A stretch of DNA of 64,000 nucleotides from Escherichia coli (GTDB lineage Bacteria; Pseudomonadota; Gammaproteobacteria; Enterobacterales; Enterobacteriaceae), in assembly GCF_009931435.1 (NCBI RefSeq), contig NZ_CP043414.1. One strand, written 5' to 3'. This document shows, in pieces, positions 13,487 through 49,669 of this stretch. The stretch's first letter is position 1; the number at the start of each line of letters is the position of its first letter. The position numbers were made by a program, and so were the translations under genes. Under the pieces are notes generated by a model that was given only the letters and a program-made list of their open reading frames with translations, had not been told where the DNA came from and did not search any database.

Positions 13487-13728
13487 TGCGATCTCTCTTA
13501 AATAAAAATAAACGTCGCAGATAATAAAGCCCTGATTAAACCAGGCACTATCAGAAATCGCTCATAACTAATATATGCAGCATTGTGTACTGGAGGGAAT
13601 TAATTTAACAATTTGAATTTACATTATAGATTTTACTGCTACTTTGATAGTATTTCGCCCTTCTTAACTAAAAAGTTAAGTGGAGGGCGAAATTAATATG
13701 TTAAATCATAGAGCATTTATTAATTTTT

Positions 13729-14778: not shown

Positions 14779-14864
14779 TGTGTTTACTCCTGATTAGCTA
14801 TGTGTATTTGGCGATGCCTGAAATGCCATCGCAGCAAAACGCGTCCATTGAATATAGCCAATAT

Positions 14865-18281: not shown

Positions 18282-18314
18282 TAAGAATCGGGGCTTTCGC
18301 CCCGAAGAAATGGA

Positions 18315-19301: not shown

Positions 19302-19551
19302 TTCAGCCTCATTGCAGGGTAGTCAGGAAGTGTTCGCCCAAATTAGCGCGCTGGAGAGAATAAGAATTTTCGAATATTTTTATGCAGAATAAACAGCCCT
19401 ATTTCAGGCAGCTATTAAAAATTTGGTTATAAATATGGACAAAATGGGCAGCAACAATAAGTGTGACATTCATCACGTAAAAAATAGTAAAACAAACACA
19501 ATTAACGATATTTTATGTTTGTGAGTTTATTTCATGCGGATAGAGAGTTAT

Positions 19552-19962
19552 CTACACAACTTCAATGAGGGCATATTCTTCAAAAATAACGTCCATTTCG
19601 GGTGAATAGCTTCCCTCTGCCTGGAAAAAACGACGGTGTTCATTGCGCCAATATTCAAGACTAAGATCACCTTCACCTTCCTTGCGGGCAATCTCTTCGG
19701 TGACATCAGAAAAGCGCAGTAAATGCAGGCCAATCACTCTGATAACACATACAGGCTCACCACGGCTATTTTCTACAATCTTATACTCGCCAATCATCGG
19801 AAATGCGTTGTCTTCAATACATCCTGCCAGCGAACCACAGGAAGCAGTTTTAACACCAGTTGCAATCAACGTTGCGAGGTAATCGGCCAACGCTGCTGAA
19901 TCGCCAAAACTACAAAAGGAAGCATGGGGATATTTTTGTGAGATTTTTTCTTTTATGGTCAT
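19552..19962 (-). CDS. Small cytoplasmic protein, possibly ASCH-domain
   Basis: 136 aa when started at MTIKEK (11th codon of the 146-aa ORF); family assignment is from pattern recall only. Confidence 0.5.
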   Translation of the reverse strand: MTIKEKISQKYPHASFCSFGDSAALADYLATLIATGVKTASCGSLAGCIEDNAFPMIGEYKIVENSRGEPVCVIRVIGLHLLRFSDVTEEIARKEGEGDLSLEYWRNEHRRFFQAEGSYSPEMDVIFEEYALIEVV

Positions 19963-20260
19963 GGCAATATTTTCGCGATAACAGAACAACAAATTACATC
20001 TTAATTACTGTCGATAACTATCAGCAAGAGGATCATTGGTTTTTCTATGTTTAATCTTTTTTATCCGAAGCAGGTCACATTTATGGCTTGATAAATACCT
20101 TTGTTAAAACTCACTTTTGTGTATTTCTCTCAAATAATCCCCTGGAAATTATGCCGGGAGATTATAAAGTTCAGGATCATTCATTAACAAACCATTCCCG
20201 CCCCACTCCCTGGGGCTTAAATCTCTTACTATTCACCGTTGCAGGCGTTTCAAATTCGTA

Positions 20261-22609: not shown

Positions 22610-23105
22610 ATGTCCGCTACAGAGGGTGATGGGGTTATGACCAACGCCAGACAGCCTGATGCGCTACGCTTATCAGGCCTACAGATTCTTGTGCCATTCG
22701 TAGGCCGGATAAGGCGTCCACGCCGCATCCGGCAATGGTGACAAATGCCTGATGCGCTACGCTTATCAGGCCTACAGATTCTCGCGCCACTCGTAGGCCG
22801 GATAAGGCGTTCACGCCACAACCGGCAATGGTGACAAATGCCTGATGCGCTACGCTTATCAGGCCTACAGATTCTTGTGCCATTCGTAGGCCGGATAAGG
22901 CGTCCACGCCGCATCCGGCAATCGTGACAAATGCCTGATGCGCTACGCTTATCAGGCCTACAGATTCTTGCGCCACTCGTAGGCCGGATAAGGCGTTCAC
23001 GCCGCATCCGGCAATGGTGACAAATGCCTGATGCGCTACGCTTATCAGGCCTACAGATTCTCGCGCCACTCGTAGGCCGGATAAGGCGTTCACGCCACAT
23101 CCGGC
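22610..23105. repeat. BIME/REP array, five tandem units with a period of about 92-95 bp
   Basis: GCCTGATGCGCTACGCTTATCAGGCCTACAGATTCT...GTAGGCCGGATAAGGCG...GCATCCGGCAATGGTGACAAAT repeats starting near 22652, 22747, 22840, 22933 and 23025. Confidence 0.85.
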
Positions 23106-23118
23106 ATGAACATGTCAG

Positions 23119-33600: not shown

Positions 33601-34616
33601 TTTTGGGTGATCCCTAAAGCCCCGTTTTTCTCAATTTTGACTTTACCGCTAAAGGCGGAGTTATCCCCGGTTAAGTAAGTTGTACCATTGAGCGCATTGA
33701 TATAGCCCAGGCCCTCGCTGCCACTGACAATATCCGCGGAAATAGTCGCGTTTTTATCCGTGTGGTTTAAAGTGATTTTCTTATCTGATGTCGAAGCCCA
33801 CACAAACTCAATTTTTTCGGCATCAATAATCCCTGCCGCTTTCGCATCACTCCCTTCCTGGGCACCTAACGCCAACTCAGAGTTGGTGCTTAAACTAATA
33901 GTCGGCGCAGAAACTTTACCGCCTTCTGAAACGGCAAGTGTTGTATCGGAGTTTTGGTTATAATAGCCCAGGCTAATTTGCTTACTGGCATTAACTTCAC
34001 CGCCGTTATTAACTGACAGGTACTGATTACCACCGTAACTGCTGTAAACGCCCATAAAGAAGGTTTCAGAATTTACCTGGCTGCCTTCACCACTGACATT
34101 TCCCTGCAAATAGGTCAGACGACTGGTGCCCTTAACATGGATTTTGCCGCCATTGGAGACGTTAAAATAGCCGCGATCATGCCAGGAGCCGGAGTTTGAG
34201 TCATATAAATCATCTGCATACAACTCACTACCAGCATTGGAGACGTTCAGGAAACCTGTACCTTTCAGCAGGACGTCAAGCTGACCATTGATATACACTT
34301 TCCCTCCGGTGATATCCAATCCACCACCAGAATTGAGCGTAAAGCGTGGACGCGAGGTGTCTGTTACGTTAATAACCAGATTAGCATTATCAGTCACCGT
34401 AATACGGTAATCGATGTTCTGATCGGTTTTGCCGTAATCAACAGTCTTATCCTGGTTCACGATGAAATCACCAGAGAACGCCAGAGATGAATATAAACTT
34501 ATCGCGCTAATTAAAACAGCCCGGGACTTTTTTCCTTTTACTCTGCTCCCCAGCTCCGAGCAGACGCTCCAACAGTTACGGGACCTGTTCCACTTTAGCC
34601 GATATATTTTATTCAT
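30633..34616 (-). CDS. ehaA: AIDA-I-type (type Va) autotransporter adhesin, 1327 aa (EhaA-like)
   Basis: Extended signal peptide MNKIYRLKWNRSRNCWSVCSELGSRVKGKK...; long Gly/Asn/Thr-rich beta-helix passenger; Pro-rich linker PEPDPMPNPEPNPNPEPNPNPTPTPGP; C-terminal beta-barrel ending in aromatic ...GIKWQF. Symbol is from recall of EHEC EhaA size and locus. Confidence 0.8.
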   Translation of the reverse strand: MNKIYRLKWNRSRNCWSVCSELGSRVKGKKSRAVLISAISLYSSLAFSGDFIVNQDKTVDYGKTDQNIDYRITVTDNANLVINVTDTSRPRFTLNSGGGLDITGGKVYINGQLDVLLKGTGFLNVSNAGSELYADDLYDSNSGSWHDRGYFNVSNGGKIHVKGTSRLTYLQGNVSGEGSQVNSETFFMGVYSSYGGNQYLSVNNGGEVNASKQISLGYYNQNSDTTLAVSEGGKVSAPTISLSTNSELALGAQEGSDAKAAGIIDAEKIEFVWASTSDKKITLNHTDKNATISADIVSGSEGLGYINALNGTTYLTGDNSAFSGKVKIEKNGALGITQNIGTAEITNRGKLHLKADDSMTFANKISGNGTISIDSGTVELTGNNYAFSGYIDVASDAVAVISEDKNIGRAELDVDGKLQINANKDWVFDNDLEGKGIVEINMGNHEFSFDEFAYTDWFQGSLAFQNTTFNLEKNAEFLQKGGITAGQGSQITVGKGAHSISTLGFSGGTVDFGALAAGAQMTEGTVNVSKTLDLRGEGVIQVTDSDVVRSVSRDIDSALSLTEVDDGNSTIKLVDAQGAEVLGDAGNLQLQNKNGQILSSRSQRDIQQNGQKAAVGTYDYRLTSGVNNDGLYIGYGLTQLDLQATDSDALVLSANGKSENAADLSAKVTGSGDLAFSSQKGQTVSLSNKDNDYTGVTDLRSGTLLLNNDNVLGNTHELRLAAETELDMNGHSQTVGTLKASADSLLNLNGGTLTVANGGTSSGSLSGDGELNIQGGTLDIAGDNSNLTANVNIASSANVLVSHAQGMGNANIENNGTLALNNSAEKRAAAPVNYTLGGNLTNNGTLMTGMSGQQAGNVLVVKGNYHGNNGQLVMNTVLNGDDSVTDKLVVEGDTSGTTAVTVNNAGGTGAKTLNGIELIHVDGKSEGEFVQAGRIVAGAYDYTLARGQGANSGNWYLTSGSDSPELQPEPDPMPNPEPNPNPEPNPNPTPTPGPDLNVDNDLRPEAGSYIANLAAANTMFNTRLHERLGNTYYTDMVTGEQKQTTMWMRHEGGHNKWRDGSGQLKTQSNRYVLQLGGDIAQWSQNGSDRWHVGVMAGYGNSDSKTISSRTGYRAKASVNGYSTGLYATWYADDESRNGAYLDSWAQYSWFDNTVKGDDLQSESYKSKGFTASLEAGYKHKLAEFNGSQGTRNEWYVQPQAQVTWMGVKADNHRESNGTLVHSNGDGNVQTRLGVKTWLKSHHKMDEGKSREFQPFVEVNWLHNSKDFSTSMDGVSVTQDGARNIAEIKTGVEGQLNANLNVWGNVGVQVADRGYNDTSAMVGIKWQF

Positions 34617-35188
34617 CACAATCTCCAGCAATACATCCAAATAAAACTAAGATTGCATAAACAGCAACGCATTAAATGCCATTCCGGTTACTGTTCATCG
34701 CATATAAAAATTCAAAAATTTTGCATAGCATTGACAACCACATATCTGAGTATGTAGTTCAGAGGGTAATAAAATAGCAAGTTACTACTGAAAACTTATT
34801 TTAAGTTAACACTATTAACTTTATCATTACATTCCACCCAGTCTCGAATACATGCGCATTATATGTATCCAGGAACTCAAATCAACTCAAAATATAAACA
34901 AAAGCAGGAGGAATACATTTAATATACAGCCGGTAAAAGTGGTAACTCTTATTAGGTATCAAAATATAAGAATCGTCTTATTAATAAATATATAACTCTA
35001 TAGGACTGAATCCATTCAGCTAATGCAAAATAAAATCGTTAATTAATAAAATATAAAATCATGAAGTGATACAAGAGGAATTGCAGGATATGACATGACA
35101 ATCATATATAATATATGCATAATTTTTTACAGCGAGTCAATGATTTCCGCGCCATATGCAGACATGGCGCGGTTTTATGCAAAAATAA

Positions 35189-37222
35189 TCACACGTCCGG
35201 GAACATTACGCTATTACCCGGCGCTTCACGATGGAGATGGATAAAGTTTAGGTGCCGCTCGTACTGATCGAGAATATCGGTGATCACCTGCTCTTTGCTG
35301 TAGTCCATCAGGTCGTTGCCCTGGCTGCCTTCTAACAGGAAGGTTTCCAGCCGGTAGTAGGTCGATTTACCGCTACGTGCGCGGTAGGTAAAGCCCGGCA
35401 CCGAATATTGCTGCGGCCAAATCTGATAGACAAAGTTTTGCTCTTCGCCCATATGCACCAACAAATCCAGATGCCCCAACTGTTGTCCCTCTTCCGGCGG
35501 CAGGCTTTTTAGCTCCACGTACGCGCCGCGCAACCGCAGCTCCTGCGCCACTTCTTCCATTGCCGGGTAACAGACCGTCTCCATCATCTGTTTAGTGTAA
35601 CGCGTGCCCGGATAATTCATCAGGCGCGAGAGACGTTTTTTCCAGCTCAGGCGATCCTGAAGCCCCAGCGGTCGCGGCGCGGTATCACGGTTGGCACTTT
35701 CACGGCGGTAATCTTCTACCTTCAGAGATTTATACAATCCCGCCATCACGAAGAAAATCACAAAGCTGAACGGCAGCCCCATGATTACCGTGGTGTTTTG
35801 CAGCGCGGATATCCCGTTGGTCATCAGCATGCCAAGCGTCAGCAGACCAATGGCAACCGACCAGAAGACACGCAGCCAGCCCGGCGCGTCGCTGTTGATA
35901 TCTTTAAGCTGCGAGGTGAAATTCCCCAGCACCAGCGCCCCGGAATCCGCCGAAGTTACGTAGAACAGCAAGCCAGTGATGGTGGCAACCGAGGCGCTAA
36001 AGGTAAATGCCGGATATTGCGCCAGCAGGCTGTAGAAGCCGCGCTCCGGATGGACCATCGCTTCCTCGGCAAATGCCGCGCCGCCGTGGATGATTTCATA
36101 CAGCGCGCTATTGCCGAATACCGAGAGCCATAACAGCGTGAAGGTAAACGGAATAATCAACGTGCCCAGCACGAACTGGCGAATGGTACGCCCGCGCGAG
36201 ATACGCGCCAGGAACAGGCCGACAAACGGCGACCATGCCACCCACCATGCCCAGAAGAAGAGCGTCCAGTTATTCATCCACTCAACCGGACGGTCGAAGG
36301 CAAAACTGTTGAGCGTCATTCCCATAAAGCGATTCACATAGTCGCCAACGTTCAGCACCAGCGCATTAAGCAGGAACGAGGTGTCGCCCATAAACAGCAC
36401 GAACAGGATCAACCCCAGCGCCAGCGCAACGTTGAGTTCCGATAACACGCGAATGCCCTTATCGACACCGGAGGTGACAGAGATCGTTGCGATGATCACC
36501 GACAAGGCGATCAGTGCCGCTTTCGCCGCCATCGAATCGGGAATATCAAACAGTACGCTCAAGCCATAGTTAAGCTGCACCACGCCAATACCGAGCGTGG
36601 TCGCAATACCGAAAATGGTGCCGATTACCGCCGCGATATCTACCGTGTGACCAATCGGCCCGTTGATCCGTTTGCCGAAAATAGGATACAGCGCCGAGCG
36701 GATCGTGAGCGGTAAATCATAACGATAGCTAAAGTATCCAAGCGCCATGCCCATCAGCGCATACATCGACCAGCCGGTTAAGCCGTAGTGAAACAGCGTC
36801 CAGACCATCGCCTGACGCGCGGCCTCAATTGTCTGTCCCGCGCCTTCCGGCGGCTGCATATACTGCGTGACCGGCTCAGCAACGGAGAAGAACATCAGAT
36901 CAATACCAATCCCGGCAGCGAACAGCATCGCCGCCCAGCTCAGTAGACTGAATTCCGGTTTGGATTGTTCAGGCCCGAGCTTCACCGAACCAAAACGCGA
37001 ACAAGCGATGCAGACCACAAAGACAATATAGAGCGTTGCCGCCAGCAGATAGTACCAACCGAAGGTTTTAGAAACCCAGTCCAGCGTGCGGCCAATCCAC
37101 AGGGCCGAGAAGTCGCGAAACAGGATCGTTGTCAGGGAAAACAACAAAATCAGTCCGGCGGAGGTGTAAAACACCACCGGATTGATTTTGTCCTTTTCCC
37201 TGCTGTGCGAAAGGTCTGTCAT
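35189..37222 (-). CDS. betT: Choline transporter (BCCT family)
   Basis: 677-aa polytopic ORF with the BCCT-type Trp-rich segment (WTLFFWAWWVAWSPFVG); synteny with betIBA. Confidence 0.93.
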   Translation of the reverse strand: MTDLSHSREKDKINPVVFYTSAGLILLFSLTTILFRDFSALWIGRTLDWVSKTFGWYYLLAATLYIVFVVCIACSRFGSVKLGPEQSKPEFSLLSWAAMLFAAGIGIDLMFFSVAEPVTQYMQPPEGAGQTIEAARQAMVWTLFHYGLTGWSMYALMGMALGYFSYRYDLPLTIRSALYPIFGKRINGPIGHTVDIAAVIGTIFGIATTLGIGVVQLNYGLSVLFDIPDSMAAKAALIALSVIIATISVTSGVDKGIRVLSELNVALALGLILFVLFMGDTSFLLNALVLNVGDYVNRFMGMTLNSFAFDRPVEWMNNWTLFFWAWWVAWSPFVGLFLARISRGRTIRQFVLGTLIIPFTFTLLWLSVFGNSALYEIIHGGAAFAEEAMVHPERGFYSLLAQYPAFTFSASVATITGLLFYVTSADSGALVLGNFTSQLKDINSDAPGWLRVFWSVAIGLLTLGMLMTNGISALQNTTVIMGLPFSFVIFFVMAGLYKSLKVEDYRRESANRDTAPRPLGLQDRLSWKKRLSRLMNYPGTRYTKQMMETVCYPAMEEVAQELRLRGAYVELKSLPPEEGQQLGHLDLLVHMGEEQNFVYQIWPQQYSVPGFTYRARSGKSTYYRLETFLLEGSQGNDLMDYSKEQVITDILDQYERHLNFIHLHREAPGNSVMFPDV

Positions 37223-37286
37223 CCAGTATCCCCACTGTTATTGTTACCATTTAAAATCAAATTAGTAACAATTAAGACACATTTTA

Positions 37287-37306
37287 TATTGAACGTCCAA
37301 TCAATA
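37287..37306. promoter_or_regulatory. Candidate BetI operator palindrome in the betT-betI divergent promoter region
   Basis: Perfect inverted repeat TATTGA-ACGTCCAA-TCAATA in the 128-bp intergenic region. Confidence 0.45.
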
Positions 37307-37350
37307 ACGGCTTTAATAGATTAACAACGCTGATGAATGGAGTGGCAAAA

Positions 37351-37938
37351 ATGCCCAAATTGGGGATGCAGTCGATCCGGCGCAGACAACTGATCGACGC
37401 CACGCTGGAAGCAATAAATGAAGTAGGTATGCACGATGCGACGATCGCGCAGATTGCCCGCCGGGCGGGCGTTTCCACCGGGATCATTAGCCACTATTTC
37501 AAAGATAAAAATGGTCTGCTGGAAGCAACCATGCGTGATATCACCAGCCAGCTGCGTGACGCGGTCTTGAACCGCTTACACGCGCTACCGGATGGCAGCC
37601 CTGAGCAGCGATTACAGGCGATTGTTGACGGAAATTTCGATGAGACTCAGGTCAGTAATGCTGCGATGAAAGCCTGGCTGGCGTTTTGGGCCAGCAGTAT
37701 GCATCAGCCGATGCTTTACCGTTTGCAGCAGGTGAGCAGCCGCCGCTTGTTGTCGAATCTGGTGAGCGAATTTCACCGCGAGTTACCGCGCAAAGAGGCA
37801 CAGGAGGCAGGTTATGGCCTGGCCGCGCTGATTGACGGTTTATGGCTGCGCGCGGCATTGAGCGGTAAACCGCTGGATAAACCTCTCGCACACTCGCTCA
37901 CCCGCCACTTTATCACTCAGCATTTACCCACCGATTAA
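37351..37938 (+). CDS. betI: TetR-family repressor of the bet regulon
   Basis: TetR HTH ([21 protein letters not shown]); start placed at MPKLGM. Confidence 0.9.
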
Positions 37939-37951
37939 CCGAGGAGACGTG

Positions 37952-39424
37952 ATGTCCCGAATGGCAGAACAGCAGCTTTATATACATGGTGGTTATACCT
38001 CCGCCACCAGCGGTCGCACCTTCGAGACCATTAACCCGGCCAACGGTAACGTGCTGGCGACCGTGCAGGCCGCCGGGCGTGAGGATGTCGATCGCGCCGT
38101 GAAGAGCGCCCAGCAGGGGCAAAAAATCTGGGCGGCGATGACCGCCATGGAACGCTCGCGCATTCTGCGTCGGGCCGTTGATATTCTGCGCGAACGCAAT
38201 GACGAACTCGCTAAACTGGAAACCCTCGACACCGGGAAGGCGTATTCAGAAACCTCAACCGTCGATATCGTTACCGGCGCGGACGTACTGGAGTACTACG
38301 CCGGGCTGATCCCGGCGCTGGAAGGCAGCCAGATCCCGCTACGCGAGACGTCGTTTGTTTATACCCGCAGTGAACCGCTGGGCGTGGTCGCCGGAATTGG
38401 CGCATGGAACTACCCGATTCAGATTGCTTTGTGGAAATCCGCTCCGGCACTGGCCGCAGGCAACGCGATGATATTCAAACCGAGCGAAGTTACCCCGCTT
38501 ACCGCGTTAAAGCTGGCTGAAATCTACAGCGAAGCGGGCCTGCCGGACGGCGTATTTAACGTGTTGCCGGGCGTAGGTGCGGAAACCGGGCAGTATCTGA
38601 CCGAGCATCCGGGCATCGCCAAAGTGTCGTTTACCGGCGGCGTCGCCAGCGGCAAAAAGGTGATGGCTAACGCGGCGGCCTCTTCCCTGAAAGAGGTGAC
38701 CATGGAGCTGGGCGGTAAATCGCCGCTGATCGTTTTCGACGATGCAGACCTCGATCTCGCCGCCGATATCGCCATGATGGCGAACTTCTTTAGCTCCGGT
38801 CAGGTGTGTACCAATGGCACCCGCGTCTTCGTTCCGGCGAAATGCAAAGCCGCGTTTGAGCAGAAAATACTGGCGCGCGTTGAACGCATTCGCGCGGGCG
38901 ACGTTTTCGATCCGCAAACCAACTTTGGCCCGCTGGTCAGCTTCCCGCATCGCGATAACGTGCTGCGCTATATCGCCAAAGGTAAAGAGGAAGGCGCACG
39001 CGTGCTCTGCGGCGGCGATGTGCTGAAGGGTGATGGCTTCGATAACGGCGCATGGGTTGCACCGACCGTGTTCACCGATTGCCGCGACGAAATGACTATC
39101 GTGCGCGAAGAGATCTTCGGCCCGGTGATGTCGCTCCTCACGTATGAGTCTGAAGACGAAGTGATTCGCCGCGCCAATGATACCGACTACGGTCTGGCGG
39201 CGGGTATCGTCACGGCGGATCTGAACCGCGCGCATCGCGTCATTCATCAGCTGGAAGCCGGCATTTGCTGGATCAACACCTGGGGAGAATCCCCGGCGGA
39301 GATGCCCGTTGGCGGTTACAAACACTCCGGCATTGGCCGCGAGAACGGCGTGATGACGCTCCAGAGTTATACCCAGGTGAAGTCCATCCAGGTTGAGATG
39401 GCTAAATTCCAGTCCATATTCTAA
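37952..39424 (+). CDS. betB: Betaine aldehyde dehydrogenase (NAD-dependent ALDH family)
   Basis: ALDH motifs (ELGGKSP, catalytic Cys in [13 protein letters not shown]). Confidence 0.93.
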
Positions 39425-39437
39425 CCAGGAGGTTTAT

Positions 39438-41126
39438 TTGCAATTTGACTACATCATTATTGGCGCCGGCTCTGCCGGCAACGTCCTCGCGACACGTCTG
39501 ACTGAAGATCCGAACACTACCGTGCTGCTGCTTGAAGCGGGCGGCCCGGACTATCGCTTTGACTTCCGTACCCAAATGCCCGCTGCGCTGGCGTTCCCGC
39601 TACAGGGTAAACGCTATAACTGGGCGTATGAGACCGAGCCGGAACCGTTTATGAACAACCGTCGCATGGAGTGCGGACGCGGTAAGGGGCTTGGTGGATC
39701 ATCACTGATCAACGGCATGTGTTACATCCGTGGTAACGCGCTGGATCTCGATAACTGGGCGAAAGAACCCGGTCTGGAGAACTGGAGCTACCTCGACTGT
39801 CTGCCCTACTATCGCAAGGCCGAGACTCGCGATGTGGGCGAGAACGACTACCACGGCGGTGATGGCCCGGTGAGCGTCACCACCTCCAAACCCGGCGTCA
39901 ATCCGCTGTTTGAAGCGATGATTGAAGCGGGCGTGCAGGCGGGCTACCCGCGCACGGACGATCTCAACGGCTATCAGCAGGAAGGTTTTGGCCCGATGGA
40001 TCGCACCGTCACGCCGCAGGGCCGTCGCGCCAGTACCGCGCGCGGTTATCTCGATCAGGCCAAATCGCGCCCTAACCTGACGATTCGTACTCACGCTATG
40101 ACCGATCACATCATTTTTGACGGCAAACGCGCGGTGGGCGTCGAGTGGCTGGAAGGCGACAGCACCATTCCGACCCGCTCGGCGGCGAATAAAGAAGTGC
40201 TGTTATGTGCAGGCGCGATTGCTTCACCGCAGATCCTGCAACGCTCCGGCGTCGGCAACGCTGGACTGCTGGCGGAGTTTGATATTCCGCTGGTGCATGA
40301 ATTACCTGGCGTCGGCGAAAATCTTCAGGATCACCTGGAGATGTATCTGCAATATGAGTGCAAAGAACCGGTTTCCCTCTACCCTGCCCTGCAGTGGTGG
40401 AATCAGCCGAAAATCGGTGCGGAGTGGCTGTTTGGCGGCACCGGCGTGGGTGCCAGCAACCACTTTGAAGCAGGTGGATTTATCCGCAGCCGTGAGGAAT
40501 TTGCGTGGCCGAACATTCAATACCACTTCCTGCCGGTAGCGATTAACTACAACGGCTCGAATGCGGTGAAAGAGCACGGTTTCCAGTGCCACGTTGGCTC
40601 AATGCGCTCGCCAAGCCGTGGGCATGTGCGGATTAAATCCCGCGACCCGCACCAGCATCCGGCGATTTTGTTTAACTACATGTCGCACGAACAGGACTGG
40701 CAGGAGTTCCGCGACGCGATTCGCATCACCCGCGAGATCATGCATCAACCGGCGCTGGATCAATACCGTGGCCGCGAAATCAGCCCCGGCGCGGAATGCC
40801 AGACAGATGAGCAGCTCGATGAGTTTGTGCGTAATCACGCCGAAACCGCCTTCCACCCATGCGGTACGTGCAAAATGGGGTACGACGAGATGTCCGTTGT
40901 GGATGGCGAAGGCCGCGTGCACGGGCTGGAAGGATTACGCGTAGTCGATGCGTCAATTATGCCGCAGATCATCACCGGCAATCTGAACGCCACGACCATT
41001 ATGATTGGCGAGAAAATGGCGGATATGATTCGCGGACGAGAAGCGTTGCCCAGAAGTCTGGCGGCGTATTTTGTGGCGAATGGGATGCCAGTAAGAGCGA
41101 AAAAACTGAATCGCGATTTGAACTAA
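39438..41126 (+). CDS. betA: Choline dehydrogenase (GMC oxidoreductase, FAD-dependent)
   Basis: FAD-binding GxGxxG ([15 protein letters not shown]); start placed at the TTG at 39438, which has an AGGAGG 7 nt upstream; the longer ATG-initiated ORF from 39393 overlaps betB. Confidence 0.88.
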
Positions 41127-41330
41127 CGCAGGAACTTACAAGATTGAGAGTTACCGTTCTACGATAAGGACCGAATCCTTATATAAAAAACATAGGTAAC
41201 TCTCATGCTTCATATCCAGTATTCATGATGCTGGTTTTTTGCTGATGTTTTTACCAGAATATTCCTGATACAGACTATTAATTCAAGCTTATCTGCGACA
41301 GATTTCATTTTCTGGATATATTATGAGTGA

Positions 41331-41833
41331 CAAATCAAACAGGATATCGATCTGATTGAAATTTTATTTTATCTGAAGAAAAAGATTCGTGTTATTCTGT
41401 TTATTATAGCTGTTTGTATGACAATGGTGCTATTATTTCTGTACATCAATAAAGACAATATAAAGCTGAGTTACAGCCTAAAAATAAACCACACAACATC
41501 AGGCATACTTGTAAGCTGTGATAGCAATAATAACTTTGCCTGTCAGACCACAATGACTGAAGATGTTATTCAGCGAATTACGAGTTTTTTAGACCAGTAC
41601 TAATGCTAAAAATTGCCTTGTCAAAAAAATGGTAGATGAATACAAACAAAACTCTGGGCAGTAATAAACAGCATTCTGATAGAGAGTGCCTGTATAAAGC
41701 TGAAGTGACAATGACCGGGAAGGGAGCCCGTCTTCAGGAATGGATTCCTGTCTTTTTCACTGTAAATATCCTGGCATTATTAATGTCAGGATATTTACAG
41801 AAGAGCAGCATAACCATGACGGAACGGGGTTAA
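41331..41833 (+). pseudogene. Possible degraded gene for a small membrane protein (frameshifted fragments)
   Basis: ATG at 41333 opens a short frame (MSDKSNRISI*) that continues after a +1 shift into ...LIEILFYLKKKIRVILFIIAVCMTMVLLFLYINKD... (ORF ending 41603), followed by another fragment at 41636..41833; AT-rich. Confidence 0.25.
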
Positions 41834-41906
41834 GTCAGGTTGTCCTTAACGCTATTCACAACCTCGTATACCGCCTTCAGGTTTATGTCCAGACTTCATA
41901 TCTCTC

Positions 41907-42602
41907 TCAGCAATCCTCAATAATCAGATACACCGCTTTCACCGGACCATGAACCCCGACGACTTTGATAAGCTCAATGTCCGCCGTTGAACTAGGACCA
42001 CTGATGATGTTAATACATGACGGCATTCGTTCACCGGCCTGCGCTTTCTGATGCAATTTTTCTGCGAGTTGCGCTACACGCGGCAGGATTGTGCTTTTAC
42101 GCAGGATAAAAAGAGAAGATTCCGGGAGCAGGCTCAATGAACGCCCGCGCCCGGCGGCGGAAAAAAGAACCACGCCACCCGATTCGGTTAAACCATATTC
42201 AGCATATACGACGCCCACTTTAGCCTGCTCTGCTTGTGATATGTTCTCAATACCTTTCGCCGGATCCCAAACAACGGCATTGCATTCCTGCTGCAAACGT
42301 TCGCTAATCCCCAATTCCTCCAGCCTCGTGTCACCGCTAATCACGACCGACTGCTCTCCCAGCTCTTTACACAGACATATTGCAGCTTCTGCGGCCTGCG
42401 CCTCGCTGGTCAGTTCACAGCGCGTCAACATAACATCGCTGGCAAACTGGATAAACGCGTCACAGCGCTGCTGTTGGTTAAGTTCGGTAAGCCGCTCGTT
42501 AGCATAGTTGTTAAGCGGCGCATCTTCTGCTTGCGGTTCAAGTCGCTGCGGGCGACCCAGTGCCTGAGCAACGTTATTCAAAAATTCGCTCCGATTATCC
42601 AT
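41907..42602 (-). CDS. ykgG: LutC-like lactate utilisation protein (YkgG)
   Basis: Start placed at MDNRSEFL (52nd codon of the 282-aa ORF), giving 231 aa and an 8-nt overlap with ykgF. Confidence 0.75.
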   Translation of the reverse strand: MDNRSEFLNNVAQALGRPQRLEPQAEDAPLNNYANERLTELNQQQRCDAFIQFASDVMLTRCELTSEAQAAEAAICLCKELGEQSVVISGDTRLEELGISERLQQECNAVVWDPAKGIENISQAEQAKVGVVYAEYGLTESGGVVLFSAAGRGRSLSLLPESSLFILRKSTILPRVAQLAEKLHQKAQAGERMPSCINIISGPSSTADIELIKVVGVHGPVKAVYLIIEDC

Positions 42603-44022
42603 TCTTTTTCTCCTGCGCCTGATGTTTCTTAAACCAACTACGGAAACTCTCTCCGTCAGCTTCAGGAAGATCGCGTGCTTCCATCCAGTCGCTAATCGCG
42701 CCAAATTTGAGTGGTGTTTTGCCGCCATTGATAAACCAGCTTGCCGCATGAGCACCAGCCATCATCCCGACTTTCCACAATCCTGGATGACTATTGGCAT
42801 AAGCGAACATTTTTATCGCCCGTTGCTCTGCTTTTGCGGTGATCCCTTTTTCAGCCATCACCCGACGATGACGCAAAATCAGTTTTGACAGCGGAATACG
42901 CACCGGACACACGCTGTCACAAGCTGTGCATAAAGAGCAGGCGTAGGGTAAATCTTTAAAATCTTTATAGCCGCCAAGTAACGGGGAAATCACCGCACCA
43001 ATTGGCCCTGGATAAATAGAGCCATATCCATGACCGCCAATATGGCGATATGCCGGACAAGTATTCATACAAGCCCCGCAGCGAATACAGCGCAGCACAT
43101 CCCGAAATTCAGAAGCCAGCACCTCAGAACGCCCGTTATCGACAATAACCAGATGAAACTCTTCAGGACCATCAACGTGCCCCGCTTCGCGCGGTCCTGT
43201 CAGCCAGGTGTTGTATCCCGTCAAACGTGCACCAACGGCACTGCGCGCCAGCATGGTGATCAATACATCTACCTCGGCAAACGTGGGGGCAATACGCTCC
43301 ATTCCCATCACTGCAATATGCGTTTTAGGCAGCGTGGTACACATTCGCGCATTACCTTCATTGGTCACCAGGCATACCGAACCGGTCTCTGCCACCGCGA
43401 AATTACAGCCGGTAATACCTATTTCAGCACTGAGGAAATCTTCGCGGATTTTTTGCCGAATGAATAAGGTCATCGCTTCAGGCGTTTCCGGCCCCTCATA
43501 ACCCAGACGTTCGTGTAGCACTCGACGGATCTGATGGCGATCTTTATGAATTGCCGGGACCACAACATGAGAGGGCGGATCTTGATCCAGCTGGAGAATG
43601 TATTCACCCAGATCGGTTTCAATCACCTGAATACCAGCATCCTGCAACACATGATTGACACCAATCTCTTCGGTCACCATCGATTTAGATTTCACCACCT
43701 TCCGGGCATTTTTGCGTTGGGCGACCTGTAAAATGTAGCGGGTGGCGTCTTCTTTGGTTTTTGCAAAATAGACGTGACCGCCGTTTTGCGTCACTTTTTC
43801 AGAGAGCTGGTACAGATAAGCGTCGAGATTACTCAGAACATGATCACGTATCTGGGCGGCCCGGTCGCGCCACTCCTCCCAGTGCCCTAATTCATCGACC
43901 ATTTTTTGCCGATTTGCCCCAATACGCTGCTGCGCGTTTGCCACCGCTTTGCGCATGATCGGATCTTCAATTTGCTGACGGATGCGTGTCTTAAAATCTG
44001 TATTACTGGTTTTGATCGACAT
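42595..44022 (-). CDS. ykgF: LutB-like iron-sulfur protein, 4Fe-4S ferredoxin-type (YkgF)
   Basis: 475 aa with two Cys clusters CIRCGACMNTCPAY and CSLCTACDSVCP. Confidence 0.85.
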   Translation of the reverse strand: MSIKTSNTDFKTRIRQQIEDPIMRKAVANAQQRIGANRQKMVDELGHWEEWRDRAAQIRDHVLSNLDAYLYQLSEKVTQNGGHVYFAKTKEDATRYILQVAQRKNARKVVKSKSMVTEEIGVNHVLQDAGIQVIETDLGEYILQLDQDPPSHVVVPAIHKDRHQIRRVLHERLGYEGPETPEAMTLFIRQKIREDFLSAEIGITGCNFAVAETGSVCLVTNEGNARMCTTLPKTHIAVMGMERIAPTFAEVDVLITMLARSAVGARLTGYNTWLTGPREAGHVDGPEEFHLVIVDNGRSEVLASEFRDVLRCIRCGACMNTCPAYRHIGGHGYGSIYPGPIGAVISPLLGGYKDFKDLPYACSLCTACDSVCPVRIPLSKLILRHRRVMAEKGITAKAEQRAIKMFAYANSHPGLWKVGMMAGAHAASWFINGGKTPLKFGAISDWMEARDLPEADGESFRSWFKKHQAQEKKNG

Positions 44023-44032
44023 CTTTATATCC

Positions 44033-44752
44033 TCAGCGGCTCATCAGCACTTCAGCAATATGCATCACTTTGACTTTCTGCCCTTCCCGTTGTAATCGTC
44101 CACTGATGTTCAGCAGGCAACTCACGTCAGCACCAATTAAATACTCAGGGCGGACTTCCATCAGGTGCGCAACCTTTTCTTTCACCATCTCGCCGGATAT
44201 TTCGGCCATTTTGACCGAGAACGTGCCGCCAAATCCGCAGCAGGTATCCTGTTCAGCAAAGGTCAACAGCTCCAGTCCACGCACATTTTTCAGCAGCGTA
44301 AGTGGCTCGTCCTTCACCCCCAGCTTACGGGCCAGGCTACAAGATGGGTGATACACCGCTCTCCCTTGCAAACTGGCACCTACATCGACTACCCCTAATG
44401 TATTAACAATAAAAGAGGTGAGATCCTGCATACGCGCGGCAACCTTTTCGGCACGTGATGCCCATTCAGGCTCATCCGCCAGATACGTTGGGTAACTTTT
44501 TACGGCATAGGTACAGGAGCCAGCCGGTGAAATAATGGGATCGTCGTTATCCTCCAGTGCGGCGATCAGATTTTTCATCCCTGGAATCGCTTCTTTGATA
44601 TAACCACTATTGATCGCAGGCTGACCGCAGCATCCCTGTTTCTCCGGGAAATTTACGCGACAGCCGAGTTTTTCCAGTAGCAGCACGGAGTCTCGTGCCA
44701 TTCTTGATTTCAGGGCGTCACCAATACAGGTGACAAAGAAATTGACATTCAC
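44033..44752 (-). CDS. ykgE: LutA-like Cys-rich (CCG domain) oxidoreductase subunit (YkgE)
   Basis: 239 aa with CCG-type cysteine motifs (GCCGQP, TCCGFGG). Confidence 0.85.
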   Translation of the reverse strand: MNVNFFVTCIGDALKSRMARDSVLLLEKLGCRVNFPEKQGCCGQPAINSGYIKEAIPGMKNLIAALEDNDDPIISPAGSCTYAVKSYPTYLADEPEWASRAEKVAARMQDLTSFIVNTLGVVDVGASLQGRAVYHPSCSLARKLGVKDEPLTLLKNVRGLELLTFAEQDTCCGFGGTFSVKMAEISGEMVKEKVAHLMEVRPEYLIGADVSCLLNISGRLQREGQKVKVMHIAEVLMSR

Positions 44753-45269
44753 AACTAATACTCCATTACTTCATGCCCATTTATGCCCGATGCTTCCCCC
44801 CACCTGGGGATCAATCATCAATAAATATGGCGTTCTTTTTTAATTGGCTAGCAACATACCACCCCTCATTTGTATGACAAATGATAATCTTTCATCCAAA
44901 CTTCAAATGCAATAACTAATTTTATTTCTTTCGGCATCGCTCACATTTTATAGGGAAATCGACGATCATTTTTGGCATAAGAAATTCATTTAAAAAGGCC
45001 ACATCCCTTATACCTATTCAGAGCTACTTATTCAGGGGTTGTTGAGATATACAATGATGGTGTACTAACAAAATCACCGGCAATAATCAGGTATCAAGTA
45101 ATAGTCGGCATTTTATTTAATTAAAGCAATTTAGTTTGCGTTTTTATTTACATACTGGGCCTGCATTCTTCAAAAAAACATATAAAACACAGTTGGAAAT
45201 AGAAATAGTTGAAAGGCTCACAACACCCGGAATGCTGATTATCTTTGCTCCGATTCCTGGCGGTTTTAT

Positions 45270-46124
45270 TCAGGGTGCAAGCTGTCTGACTCTTTCCCGA
45301 TATTCTCCCGGGGTACAACCAAACTCGCGGACAAACGCCTTGTGAAAAGATGATTCACTGGCATAGCCTACTGACTCAGCGATCACCACAACAGGGAACG
45401 TTTCCCGGGAAAACATCTGGGCCGCTATTTGTAGACGCAACTTTGTTAATACAGCCAGCGGCGTGGTTCCGGAAACATCACGGAAAAGCTGGGCAAAACT
45501 TGCCCGGGACATGTGGGCGATGCTGGCCAGCGATTCGACGGTCCAGGCGTGTCCTGGCATTTCCAGCATTTGCTGTATTACCGCACCAAGACGTGGATGC
45601 AGAAGCAAACTGAGAATGTTTTTCTCAGTATTAACCTGTGCAATCCACTCACGCACCGCGAGGGTAAAGAATGTAGCGCAGATCTGGCTACACAGTGCAT
45701 CCACTCCCGGCATTGCCGATCTGGACTCCTGTTGTAAAAACGGGATCGCCTCCCTCAGCCAGTTATATTCCACGCTGTGGTTAACCGGTGCTAAAAACAG
45801 CGTTTCCGGCAAAGACGTTAAAAAATAACGCGCCGAATGTTGTAGCCGAAGAGTGCCACAGACAATACAGGTCGATTCATTATCGACATGACTCAGGCGA
45901 TGAGCTGAATTTTGTGGTAGCAGGACCACATTTCCCGGGCGTAATGTAAAAATCTCCCCCGTCGGCATTTCCAGCTTCGCCGCTCCTTGCGTTAACGCAT
46001 GCCAACGAATAACCGATAATTCCCCGGCACCATGTGGAAGCTGCCAGTCACTTCCTAACACGCAATTCTTATCGATCGTTCCTTGTGGAGCGTTAAGCAT
46101 CAACAAACGGCTAAGGGCATCCAT
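45270..46124 (-). CDS. rclR: AraC-family redox-sensing activator of the rcl operon (RclR/YkgD)
   Basis: 284 aa with C-terminal AraC HTH; divergent from rclA. Confidence 0.8.
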   Translation of the reverse strand: MDALSRLLMLNAPQGTIDKNCVLGSDWQLPHGAGELSVIRWHALTQGAAKLEMPTGEIFTLRPGNVVLLPQNSAHRLSHVDNESTCIVCGTLRLQHSARYFLTSLPETLFLAPVNHSVEYNWLREAIPFLQQESRSAMPGVDALCSQICATFFTLAVREWIAQVNTEKNILSLLLHPRLGAVIQQMLEMPGHAWTVESLASIAHMSRASFAQLFRDVSGTTPLAVLTKLRLQIAAQMFSRETFPVVVIAESVGYASESSFHKAFVREFGCTPGEYRERVRQLAP

Positions 46125-46349
46125 ATCAGACTCCTGAGTGGTTTTTGATTACAAACACCAACAATCTTAGACAATAATTAATCTAATACCATCAAATGGT
46201 TAATCATGATTTTTGTTTTGTGATTCTGATTAATAAAAAGAAAATACCAGACGATAAGACAAAATATCAAGCGTTGTGAAGAAATGTTATTTGCTCTTTT
46301 GCGTCTATAGTCATGATGTCAAATGAACGCGTTTCGACAGGAAATCATC

Positions 46350-47675
46350 ATGAATAAATATCAGGCAGTTATTATTGGTTTTGGCAAGGCTGGAAAAACA
46401 TTAGCCGTCACGCTGGCAAAAGCAGGTTGGCGTGTGGCTCTCATCGAACAATCAAATGCAATGTATGGCGGGACCTGTATTAATATCGGCTGTATCCCAA
46501 CCAAAACATTGGTTCATGACGCACAGCAGCACACAGATTTTGTCCGTGCCATACAGCGTAAAAATGAAGTGGTTAATTTTTTACGTAATAAGAATTTTCA
46601 TAATCTTGCGGATATGCCCAATATCGACGTGATCGACGGCCAGGCGGAGTTTATCAATAATCATAGCCTGCGTGTTCATCGGCCTGGGGGAAATCTGGAG
46701 ATTCATGGCGAGAAAATTTTTATTAATACCGGTGCACAAGCCGTGGTTCCGCCAATTCCTGGAATTACCACCACGCCTGGTGTATATGACAGCACCGGAT
46801 TACTTAATCTAAAAGAATTGCCTGGGCATTTAGGTATTTTGGGCGGCGGATATATTGGCGTTGAGTTCGCCTCTATGTTCGCTAATTTTGGCAGCAAAGT
46901 AACCATTTTAGAGGCATCTTCGCTGTTTTTGCCTCGGGAAGATCGGGATATTGCTGATAATATCGCGACGATTTTACGCGATCAGGGCGTCGATATAATC
47001 CTCAATGCCCATGTGGAGCGAATCAGTCACCATGAAAATCAAGTGCAAGTGCATAGCGAGCACGCCCAACTGGCGGTGGATGCACTGTTAATAGCTTCCG
47101 GTCGTCAACCGGCTACCGCTTCGTTACATCCAGAAAATGCAGGTATCGCAGTAAACGAGCGCGGGGCAATTGTCGTTGACAAGCAATTACATACCACCGC
47201 AGACAATATTTGGGCGATGGGAGATGTTACCGGCGGGCTGCAATTTACTTACATTTCACTGGATGATTACCGCATTGTACGTGATGAGTTACTGGGTGAA
47301 GGCAAACGTAGTACTGATGATCGGAAAAATGTGCCTTATTCCGTATTTATGACACCGCCCCTGTCCAGGGTTGGTATGACAGAAGAACAAGCCAGAGAGA
47401 GTGGTGCTGATATTCAGGTGGTGACATTGCCTGTAGCTGCAATTCCGCGCGCCAGAGTGATGAACGATACCCGTGGGGTATTAAAAGCGATTGTTGATAA
47501 TAAAACCCAACGTATATTAGGGGCATCACTGCTGTGTGTTGACTCCCACGAGATGATTAATATAGTGAAAATGGTGATGGATGCCGGGCTGCCTTATAGC
47601 ATATTACGCGATCAGATATTTACTCATCCGTCGATGAGCGAATCACTCAATGATCTATTTTCATTAGTCAAATAA
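46350..47675 (+). CDS. rclA: Pyridine nucleotide-disulfide oxidoreductase (RclA/YkgC)
   Basis: FAD motif IIGFGKAG and active-site CINIGC; start placed at MNKYQ. Confidence 0.85.
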   Translation: MNKYQAVIIGFGKAGKTLAVTLAKAGWRVALIEQSNAMYGGTCINIGCIPTKTLVHDAQQHTDFVRAIQRKNEVVNFLRNKNFHNLADMPNIDVIDGQAEFINNHSLRVHRPGGNLEIHGEKIFINTGAQAVVPPIPGITTTPGVYDSTGLLNLKELPGHLGILGGGYIGVEFASMFANFGSKVTILEASSLFLPREDRDIADNIATILRDQGVDIILNAHVERISHHENQVQVHSEHAQLAVDALLIASGRQPATASLHPENAGIAVNERGAIVVDKQLHTTADNIWAMGDVTGGLQFTYISLDDYRIVRDELLGEGKRSTDDRKNVPYSVFMTPPLSRVGMTEEQARESGADIQVVTLPVAAIPRARVMNDTRGVLKAIVDNKTQRILGASLLCVDSHEMINIVKMVMDAGLPYSILRDQIFTHPSMSESLNDLFSLVK

Positions 47676-47783
47676 ACTCAAAATCAGACGCCAGGACAAA
47701 TATTCTGGCGTCTCAGAGAAAAGAATCTTATTAATTCCTTGTTATTATATAACTTCTTAATCACTTCATTGATGGTATTTTAT

Positions 47784-48020
47784 ATGTTTAAAAAACCTGT
47801 TTTATTTGCAACACTATTATCTGGCGTTATGGCATTTTCCACCAATGCAGATGATAAAATAATTCTGAAACATATCAGCGTCTCGTCAGTATCAGCATCA
47901 CCGACAGTTCTGGAGGATGCCATTGCTGATATAGCCAGAAAATATAATGCTTCATCCTGGAAAGTCACATCGATGCGAATTGATAATAATTCAACCGCAA
48001 CAGCAGTATTGTATAAATAA
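47784..48020 (+). CDS. rclB: Small periplasmic protein RclB (YkgI)
   Basis: Signal peptide MFKKPVLFATLLSGVMAFSTNA; start chosen at MFKKPV within the longer ORF. Confidence 0.7.
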   Translation: MFKKPVLFATLLSGVMAFSTNADDKIILKHISVSSVSASPTVLEDAIADIARKYNASSWKVTSMRIDNNSTATAVLYK

Positions 48021-48031
48021 GGATGTTCACA

Positions 48032-48625
48032 ATGGAAAAATACCTGCACCTGTTAAGTCGGGGAGATAAAATTGGCCTGACATTGATTCGTCTGAGTATT
48101 GCGATTGTTTTTATGTGGATTGGGTTATTAAAGTTTGTCCCTTACGAGGCAGACAGCATTACACCATTCGTCGCAAACAGTCCACTAATGTCGTTCTTTT
48201 ATGAACACCCGGAAGACTATAAACAGTATCTGACTCACGAAGGCGAATACAAACCAGAAGCAAGGGCATGGCAATCGGCCAATAATACCTATGGTTTTTC
48301 CAACGGTCTTGGCGTCGTGGAGGTGATTATTGCTCTGCTGGTTTTGGCTAATCCTGTCAATCGCTGGTTAGGTTTATTGGGAGGGCTGATGGCATTTACC
48401 ACACCGTTGGTAACACTCTCATTTTTAATCACCACCCCGGAGGCATGGGTACCCGCATTGGGTGACGCTCATCATGGTTTCCCTTATTTATCTGGTGCTG
48501 GTCGCCTGGTATTGAAAGATACTCTGATGCTGGCAGGTGCTGTCATGATAATGGCAGATTCGGCGCGGGATATTCTTAAACAACGCAGTAATGAATCCAG
48601 TTCAACGTTAAAAACTGAATATTGA
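48032..48625 (+). CDS. rclC: Inner-membrane protein RclC (YkgB, DoxX-like)
   Basis: Hydrophobic protein of about 197 aa, immediately downstream of rclB. Confidence 0.75.
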   Translation: MEKYLHLLSRGDKIGLTLIRLSIAIVFMWIGLLKFVPYEADSITPFVANSPLMSFFYEHPEDYKQYLTHEGEYKPEARAWQSANNTYGFSNGLGVVEVIIALLVLANPVNRWLGLLGGLMAFTTPLVTLSFLITTPEAWVPALGDAHHGFPYLSGAGRLVLKDTLMLAGAVMIMADSARDILKQRSNESSSTLKTEY

Positions 48626-48784
48626 TAATCCGAACACTGTCTGTTGTTCACTTTTTCAGGCGTCAGGCTCCCTTTCTGATGATGAAGCCTGACGCCATAT
48701 TACCGGAGATATGACAGAGTGAAGATCAATATCACTCCCCTGTTAAAAGATTCTTGTCGTCTCAGGTAAAATAAGTGATTAATA

Positions 48785-49669
48785 TCAATCATGTATTTTT
48801 ACAGCAAGACAACCACGAACAAACTCAGGATTAAAATGTTTTACCGATTCCCCAACATAACCCAAATCAAGCGAACTAATTTGCGCCATTTCTTTCTCTG
48901 TCAGTGAGAAATCCCAGATAGCAAAATTTTCTTCGATACGCTGTTGATGTGTCGATTTCGGAATAACGACCACTCCCCGTTGAATATTCCAACGCAGAAT
49001 GACCTGAGAAATCGATTTTTGATGGGCATCTGCAATATTCTGAAGCAGACTATTTTCAAAGGTTTTATGTCTTCCACCGCCTAACGGAGCCCATGCTTCA
49101 GGCTGCACGTTATAATACTTCATGGTTGCCAGCGCCTCTGGTTGGGCAAAATAGGGATGCAACTCGACCTGGTTGACCATCGGTTTAACTCTTACCGTCT
49201 CACAAAAGTTCGCCAGAACATGAGGGTAGAAATTGGAAACCCCAATCGCTTTTAATTTTCCCTCTTCATAGGCATCTTCGAGTGCACGCCACGCACTAAA
49301 ATAATCGCGCATGGCCTGGTGTAATAAATAGAGATCGAAGTATTCCAGTCCCGATTTTTTTAATGATGCTTCAATACCTGCTGCTGCAATATCCTGATTC
49401 AACATATCCTGCACCCACAATTTAGACGTTATAAATAACTCTTCTCGGGTACATAAACCTTCAGATATGGCTTCACGAACGGCTTCACCGACGGCATCTT
49501 CATTACCGTATACCGCTGCAGTGTCGATGAGTCGATAACCCGTGCGGATAGCATTCAACACTGACTGTTTGCACACGTCTTTATCGGTAACCTGAAAAAC
49601 ACCAAATCCCATCATCGGCATTTTCAGATTGTTACTTAATACGGAAAATTCCACTGTCAGTCCCTCCAT
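48785..49669 (-). CDS. Aldo-keto reductase (AKR family)
   Basis: 294 aa with AKR motifs ([28 protein letters not shown]...ISQVILRW). Confidence 0.8.
   Translation of the reverse strand: MEGLTVEFSVLSNNLKMPMMGFGVFQVTDKDVCKQSVLNAIRTGYRLIDTAAVYGNEDAVGEAVREAISEGLCTREELFITSKLWVQDMLNQDIAAAGIEASLKKSGLEYFDLYLLHQAMRDYFSAWRALEDAYEEGKLKAIGVSNFYPHVLANFCETVRVKPMVNQVELHPYFAQPEALATMKYYNVQPEAWAPLGGGRHKTFENSLLQNIADAHQKSISQVILRWNIQRGVVVIPKSTHQQRIEENFAIWDFSLTEKEMAQISSLDLGYVGESVKHFNPEFVRGCLAVKIHD

Follow-up and report, generated by a model that had tools for sequence, protein, structure and literature searches.

A probable pseudogene of ykgH in the betA-ykgG interval of a rare, diverged Escherichia coli haplotype

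In the 64,000-nucleotide stretch of Escherichia coli DNA analysed here (the window), positions 41323-41664 are very probably a pseudogene of ykgH. The locus is that of ykgH (K-12 b0310; 669 bp, 222 aa), occupying the orthologous slot between betA and ykgG and running convergently with ykgG. A first-pass annotation had read this region as the possible frameshift decay of a small membrane-protein gene that may be intact in other strains, and the core of that reading is upheld: the gene is ykgH, and about 4,820 full-length loci are found in other genomes. The gene is not small, its K-12 product being 222 residues long. The frameshift is also real, but the damage is far heavier than a frameshift, amounting to deletions of 1 bp, 2 bp and 324 bp plus in-frame stops; the 324-bp internal deletion, the 2-bp deletion and a mutated patch at 41582-41612 had all been missed. 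The window allele is an ordinary lineage-specific pseudogene, which the NCBI pipeline has already marked as such in relatives.

Both neighbours of the decayed region are intact, as seen from the list of open reading frames and from annotated relatives. Upstream on the plus strand lies betA, encoding choline dehydrogenase (39438..41126); its reading frame ends at 41126, the equivalent of the end annotated for the 1,689-bp betA of strain Z0117EC0005, and it is about 92% identical to K-12 betA. Downstream on the minus strand is ykgG, of the LutC family (41907..42602, stop codon 41907-41909), which is annotated at 696 bp in all related genomes. The spacer between the two is AT-rich, with 31-41% G+C against 55-60% in betA. 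When this spacer (41127-41906, 780 bp) was used as a query against 5,426 complete E. coli genomes, 5,181 of them matched, aligning with the ykgH locus over its whole length; such an end-to-end alignment excludes a chance pattern. The matches come in two main forms. In fifteen of the 5,426 genomes the match is one collinear block of 776-780 bp, referred to below as the short allele, and in about 4,820, the remaining complete genomes at 80% coverage or more, it comes in two pieces spanning about 1,100 bp, which is the full-length locus. Most genomes have the longer, full-length ykgH locus that the first-pass annotation had proposed to look for by aligning this interval with its counterparts. All the full-length loci that were inspected are annotated "ykgH: protein YkgH", although at least one has an internal stop.

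The lesions were defined by alignment to the ykgH of K-12, 042 and GF43. The K-12 gene (WP_001209100.1, "protein YkgH", a predicted inner-membrane protein) has the same slot, strand and start codon as the window copy, and its product begins MREQIKQDIDLIEILFYLKKKIRVILFIMAICMAMVLLFLYINKD…. The first lesion is a 1-bp deletion in codon 3, between 41329 and 41330, where the window reads ATGAGTG-ACAA against ATGAGTGAACAA in intact alleles. Because of this deletion, the original start (ATG 41323-41325, plus strand) now opens a frame of only 10 codons (41323..41355), MSDKSNRISI, closed by the TGA at 41353-41355, just as the first-pass annotation had described. The shifted frame that it had noticed is also there, and its hydrophobic segment proves to be membrane helix 1 of YkgH. 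This frame opens at 41331, directly 3' of an in-frame TGA (41328-41330), and runs for 90 codons to a TAA at 41601-41603. It encodes …KKKIRVILFIIAVCMTMVLLFLYINKD…, with the opening residues QIKQDIDLIEILFYLKKKIRVILFIIAVCMTMVLLFLYINKD... and the longer reading QIKQDIDLIEILFYLKKKIRVILFIIAVCMTMVLLFLYINKDNIKLSYSLKINHTTSGILVSCDSNNNFACQTTMTEDVIQRITSFLDQY. Its first canonical start is the ATG at 41418, in the middle of the hydrophobic helix, with no ATG, GTG or TTG before it.

Up to 41581 the shifted frame corresponds to codons 4-87 of ykgH (41331..41581, plus strand), as placed by alignment to intact alleles. Encoded here are a Wzz-like motif at the N-terminus, membrane helix 1 (about 41385-41447) and the first part of the periplasmic domain, which contains the two conserved cysteines; 77 of 83 residues are the same as in GF43 YkgH, and the nucleotide identity to intact alleles is 91-94%. 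The second lesion follows, a 2-bp deletion at 41581|41582 and then a heavily mutated 31-nt patch (41582..41612, plus strand) in which 20 of 31 bases match ykgH codons ~88-98. The patch holds stop codons in both relevant frames, the TAA at 41601-41603 in the remnant frame and a TAG at 41590-41592 in the ATG frame. The third lesion is the 324-bp deletion, with its junction at 41612|41613 in the alignments to all three reference alleles; it removed codons ~99-206, which encode the bulk of the periplasmic domain and almost the whole of membrane helix 2. What is left beyond the junction is the last 16 codons (CLVKKMVDEYKQNSGQ) with their TAA stop at 41662-41664 (41614..41664, plus strand), stranded without the remaining gene. 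This tail is 96-98% identical to intact alleles; a Q>K change at 41644 is shared by the window and two related genomes alone among the alleles compared. With three deletions plus stops at 41353, 41590 and 41601, the window has no uninterrupted frame of about 222 codons. The tail codons and the 3'UTR are common to the window and K-12; the window copy cannot give a full-length product.

The short allele is not peculiar to one genome. Ten of the 15 short-allele genomes were read base by base, and all ten have the codon-3 frameshift and the identical string of patch plus junction; in short-allele genomes the PGAP annotation gives the equivalent of 41334-41588 as an incomplete pseudogene. Among the ten, decay has gone on: in three the start codon is also gone (ATG>ATA, 41325 G>A), and in two another single base has been deleted at 41479. 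Eight substitutions lie in the remnant frame, spread 3:2:3 across codon positions 1-3, and pN/pS among the short alleles is 0.87. The loss of the ATG, the further deletion and the flat distribution of substitutions, together with this pN/pS, point to neutral decay. Single-base indels in A/T-rich sequence are a common form of assembly error, and one could ask whether the frameshift and deletion are a sequencing or assembly artefact of one genome; the same lesions, however, occur in ten complete genomes that were sequenced independently and stem from several hosts and countries, and the decay pattern rules out sequencing error, so we give this explanation practically no weight. Programmed frameshifting at the 1-bp deletion was considered and rejected, since inspection of the sequence reveals no slippery site, and a full product is barred in any case by the stops and the deletion further downstream.

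The same pattern is a strong argument against a functional truncated protein. The first-pass annotation had offered, as an alternative, a real small protein whose start is not ATG. On this reading the N-terminal remnant (41331-41603, or from the ATG at 41418) would be a small membrane protein, made from such a start or by re-initiation downstream of the 10-codon frame. In its favour, 90 codons are open without a break and span the whole hydrophobic helix, and the TGA that closes the 10-codon frame overlaps an ATT (41355-41357) that could act as a near-cognate start for low-level translation. But a canonical start before the helix is absent, initiation at 41418 would cut the helix in half, and some of the relatives' short alleles have lost the upstream ATG or carry the deletion at 41479 inside the frame. 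The substitutions by codon position and the pN/pS also speak against a protein under selection. Gene callers skip the remnant as well, and a collection of 15 billion proteins does not contain the 61-aa product. The small-protein alternative is thus contradicted by the relatives, and we rate it as highly improbable; the remnant most probably yields no product.

A second open frame of 65 codons (41636..41833, plus strand) had been read as a second fragment of the same gene. An ATG-initiated frame is indeed present at these positions, but it is not a piece of ykgH: its ATG lies one base out of register in the ykgH tail, where a GAT codon begins at 41635, and the frame overlaps the last 29 nt of ykgH, crosses the stop at 41662-41664 and continues into the 3'UTR, spanning a terminator at 41735-41758 and a palindrome at 41760-41800. 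It is intact in 16 of the 16 alleles compared, including that of K-12, where it stands unchanged beside an intact ykgH; since it occurs beside the intact gene, it is not a decay product. The frame is most likely non-coding. Could it nevertheless encode a real small membrane protein, with the hydrophobic stretch WIPVFFTVNILALLMSGYL? Its conservation in all 16 alleles, its annotation as a hypothetical protein in some genomes and the distribution of its variable sites (9:2:12 at codon positions 1, 2 and 3) would favour this. However, its pN/pS of 0.64 does not stand out from those of the five control frames (0.41-13), 14 of its 65 residues vary among near-identical strains, and the nucleotide diversity over the frame equals the local synonymous level. 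The hairpin and U-run of an intrinsic-terminator-like structure lie inside it, and the hydrophobic stretch itself is encoded by a T-run and a palindrome. We therefore regard a real protein as very unlikely. Pfam and NCBIfam give no match to the 65-aa product. In a number of NCBI and UniRef records it goes under the name "universal stress protein"; it lacks a Usp domain, and the name is a propagated mis-annotation. Genomes annotate the frame only now and then, and where it is listed as "hypothetical" or "universal stress protein" it is most likely spurious. In one E. coli small-ORF ribosome-profiling supplement, neither ykgH nor ykgG has an entry.

The 3' end of the locus is still in place. The terminator scan places the ykgH 3'UTR at 41665..41758 (plus strand), ending in an intrinsic-terminator-like hairpin (41735-41750) followed by TCTTTTTC (UCUUUUUC). 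Next to it, between the convergent ykgH and ykgG units, is a near-perfect palindrome with 20-nt arms (41760..41800, an inverted repeat with 95% complementarity). The K-12 counterpart of this 3'UTR is a putative Hfq-associated small RNA. It was reported as a RIL-seq Hfq sRNA candidate with a target motif by Melamed et al. 2016 (PMC5145812), and Bar et al. 2021 found a good sRNA-predictor score and an accumulation of RNA-seq reads, while northern blots with two probes were negative (PMC8175672). The published probes map to 41708-41745 in the window with 2-3 mismatches. Compared with K-12, the window keeps the homologous sequence and the terminator, but the host gene is dead.

One might suppose that the segment at about 41613-41760 has been retained because it still yields this Hfq-associated RNA, an idea that is compatible with the pseudogene reading. 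In its favour are the RIL-seq candidacy, the predictor score and the read accumulation in K-12, and the fact that the deletion ends 49 nt short of the ykgH stop codon and spares the terminator. Against it, the K-12 northern blots failed with both probes, Rfam has no family for the ykgH 3'UTR, and the fold of the 3'UTR is unexceptional (z = -1.6); for the minus-strand 3' region of ykgG the fold gives z = -3.6. The diversity of the 3'UTR (0.0425) is no lower than the synonymous diversity in the adjoining half of ykgH (0.041-0.046), leaving no sign of extra constraint. If the RNA is processed from ykgH mRNA, moreover, the decayed gene may no longer supply it. With no constraint above the neutral level, a surviving small RNA is possible but unsupported, and we think it unlikely. 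An Rfam scan of 41000-42100 at E ≤ 10 returned only chance-level matches and no known RNA family, and inspection of the allele sequences at the three linked 3'UTR polymorphisms 41726, 41732 and 41746 gave no consistent pairing of the kind expected from compensatory changes. An apparently unusual conservation of the 3'UTR was also discarded: it is an artefact of the diverged left half of the window, and intact alleles vary here at the synonymous level.

The 31-nt patch stands apart from its surroundings. It is about 35% diverged from ykgH (65% identity), with flanks that are 1-8% diverged, and its homology to the ykgH counterpart is nonetheless significant, with only 1 of 5,000 shuffles attaining the score. 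There is no second copy of it in the window and none in E. coli genomes outside the short allele. Two sources were considered and rejected on comparison: an inverted copy of nearby sequence, and the divergent ykgH homologue of a metagenome contig (described below), with which 3 of 11 differences are in common, a chance level. A simple deletion fails to account for the divergence of the patch; error-prone repair associated with the deletion may have left it behind.

Purifying selection acts on ykgH where it is intact: nine full-length alleles give a pN/pS of 0.16 overall and 0.08-0.12 over codons 1-87. Between the window copy and the intact alleles it is 0.12-0.17 at a pS of 0.18-0.28, and such a low ratio at a high pS indicates that most of the divergence of the haplotype built up while the gene was still under selection. 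The inactivation would then be recent relative to the age of the haplotype. Compared with K-12 ykgH, the left half of the window copy belongs to a much more diverged haplotype, as the same range of pS shows. The identity to K-12 steps at the deletion junction, being 93.4% to its left and 97.6% to its right; the left side, including betA, is 92-93% identical to K-12, and the right side is 99% identical to 042. Over 7-11 kb, none of the 5,426 complete genomes exceeds 98.5% identity to the window, which means that the short allele rides on a rare, diverged and mosaic haplotype. With its 15 occurrences among the 5,426 complete genomes, it marks a rare and deeply diverged bet-ykgH haplotype. On a wider scale, blocks of the window such as 11931-14936, 35149-41590 and 41613-48913 are only 92-97.6% identical to K-12, and the best of the 5,426 complete genomes reach at most 98.0-98.5% identity, so the lineage of the window is poorly represented. 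The genomes nearest to the window are those with the short ykgH allele.

It is worth adding that ykgH has been lost elsewhere by other routes. Independent decay is seen as an IS1 insertion in CAVP773, as an internal-deletion allele of 166 aa in isolate 648 (contig positions 792-1292), where the record lists it as an ordinary hypothetical protein, and in strain 107 (contig positions 509-1177) as a full-length gene with a premature stop at codon 138; many truncated protein clusters exist besides. In these three strains the same gene has been lost or truncated as in the window, but the lesions differ, and the junction and patch of the window were found in none of the other decayed alleles. The independent lesions mean that ykgH is dispensable and repeatedly lost, though under purifying selection where it is intact. 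The gene is in routine use as a neutral integration site for strain engineering, and its dispensability fits this use.

The most probable history of the locus is as follows. The ykgH gene of most E. coli encodes an inner-membrane protein of 222 aa that has two membrane helices. In the lineage of the window, three lesions (the 1-bp deletion, the 2-bp deletion with its stop-bearing patch, and the 324-bp deletion) inactivated it, leaving an N-terminal piece that would not be translated, whose hydrophobic segment corresponds to helix 1, and the last 16 codons. The 3'UTR, the terminator and the palindrome remain between the convergent bet and ykgEFG units, perhaps simply because nothing has removed them yet or perhaps because they supply terminators. 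The 65-codon frame is most likely an accidental opening over the ykgH tail and the 3'UTR.

Several other features of the window can be recorded here. A gene for a 1,335-aa autotransporter (30633-34640, minus strand), with an ESPR signal, an autochaperone domain AC_1 and a beta-domain, is located between the pdeL side and betT, at a place that is empty in K-12. A sugar-type ABC transporter operon together with an ASCH-domain protein (14865-19992, minus strand) is absent from the collinear K-12 region; its parts are two BPD_transp_2 permeases, an ATPase and a Peripla_BP_4 binding protein. There are also two tandem arrays, at 3029-3370 and 22654-23106, with units of 94 bp and 93 bp in 3.6 and 4.9 copies and matches of 91-94%; they hold REP/BIME-like GCCGGATAAGGCG / GCCTGATGCG motifs.

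The intact gene has a further association that may bear on its origin. The autotransporter gene hyxB (upaB) is present in 1,885 genomes and lies directly upstream of ykgH in all four of the hyxB-carrying strains that were examined, in line with a published account that puts the insertion of the UpaB cluster between betA and ykgH (PMC4844996). In hyxB-carrying strains the alignment to the window is collinear only from about 41212, which is where the homology on the UpaB/HyxB-island side begins. Close to this point the terminator scan finds a terminator-like hairpin and T-run in the betA-ykgH spacer (41216..41242, plus strand; hairpin 41216-41234). Between the betA stop and this hairpin lies a 16-nt inverted repeat (41140-41155 / 41195-41210; 88% complementary, 39-nt spacer), and the segment that holds it is the portion replaced in the island strains.

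A metagenome contig from a relative outside E. coli (ERZ27287602 k141_3088, positions 1-1100) has the same order, hyxB and then a ykgH homologue. The C-terminus of its HyxB is 97% identical to the E. coli protein, and its YkgH homologue is only ~50-58% identical; that the order is kept despite so diverged a YkgH is a hint that ykgH belongs with the island. In this contig the ykgH homologue is split by a stop codon into ORFs of 134 aa and 137 aa, and the genes downstream differ from those of E. coli and have no Pfam match. The genomic contexts of distant YkgH relatives are mobile elements. From these observations we would tentatively propose, as an idea with the odds somewhat against it, that the dead gene and its relatives represent an unrecognised class of ~220-aa Wzz/GNVR-type mini co-polymerase-like proteins on mobile DNA, the proposed carriers being small Mob plasmids (E. 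coli, Salmonella), Providencia integrative elements and the hyxB/upaB island of E. coli. The gene would then count not as "core" but as the distal member of the UpaB/PAI-X island, and its decay in an island-less lineage would be the loss of an orphaned accessory function, for example the modulation of a surface polymer or an autotransporter.

What kind of protein, then, has been lost? Neither Pfam nor NCBIfam assigns YkgH to a family above threshold; its Pfam scores are E 0.0025 for Wzz (PF02706; 18.5 bits against a cut-off of 25.5) and E 0.56 for GNVR (PF13807). Near-identical copies come from Escherichia only, and when YkgH peptide patterns were searched in one genome per species, the gene was found in no other species' representative. 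Pieces 100% identical to YkgH do occur in assemblies of two actinobacteria, on a 256-bp contig of Nocardioides malaquae Y6 and a 272-bp contig of Amycolatopsis orientalis KCTC 9412; these tiny, low-coverage contigs are almost certainly E. coli contamination. An exhaustive HMMER search brought up a handful of relatives of the same length, 21-29% identical, on small plasmids of E. coli and Salmonella (annotated "GNVR domain-containing protein") and in Citrobacter ("Tyrosine kinase G-rich domain-containing protein") and Providencia. In the alignment of 17 sequences, an N-terminal (E/D)IDLxEL…LKxK motif, two cysteines, one Trp and one Tyr are kept. GNVR is matched by 10 of the 17 members, with a best E of 3.6e-8 among the distant relatives, and Wzz by 12 of the 17, below threshold. 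PADLOC and PHROGs, run on YkgH and the distant relatives, gave no match to a defence or phage family.

Comparison with solved structures points to the co-polymerases. The top matches of the family profile among solved structures are WzzB (E 0.002) and FepE. An AF2 model of YkgH, built from the shallow 17-sequence alignment, has a pLDDT of 80.6 and places helices at 22-42 and 188-220 on either side of an alpha/beta domain predicted to be periplasmic, of which the longest helix (109-143) has 35 residues. In a Foldseek search of the PDB with this model, the top 20 matches were all co-polymerases (Wzc, WzzB, WzzE, KpsE), at E ~1e-4, probability 0.9-1.0 and TM(query) 0.32-0.51. From the profile and the model together, intact YkgH resembles a small-scale polysaccharide co-polymerase of the Wzz type. 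This likeness and the link to the UpaB/HyxB island are only a mildly novel by-product of the analysis, but they provide a lead for a gene of unknown function.

The comparison with the known co-polymerases (Wzz/WzzB, WzzE, FepE, Wzc and KpsE) shows both how far the likeness goes and where it ends. YkgH has the same (E/D)IDLxELxxxLKxK motif followed by membrane helix 1, and from there on the predicted order is also the same, a periplasmic alpha/beta domain and then membrane helix 2 near the C-terminus. However, proteins of the YkgH type have 210-230 residues against at least 325 in the co-polymerases, and the long helical periplasmic extension is absent. The genomic setting differs as well. YkgH is not encoded in a polysaccharide gene cluster; in E. 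coli it adjoins hyxB/upaB, or betA and ykgG, and its relatives are carried on small mobilisable plasmids and integrative elements rather than with Wzy/Wzx or ABC-export genes, although one relative adjoins a Wzy_C/PglL-like gene. Since the extension is absent and the gene is not part of a polysaccharide cluster, we call YkgH co-polymerase-like and do not count it as a member of the family.
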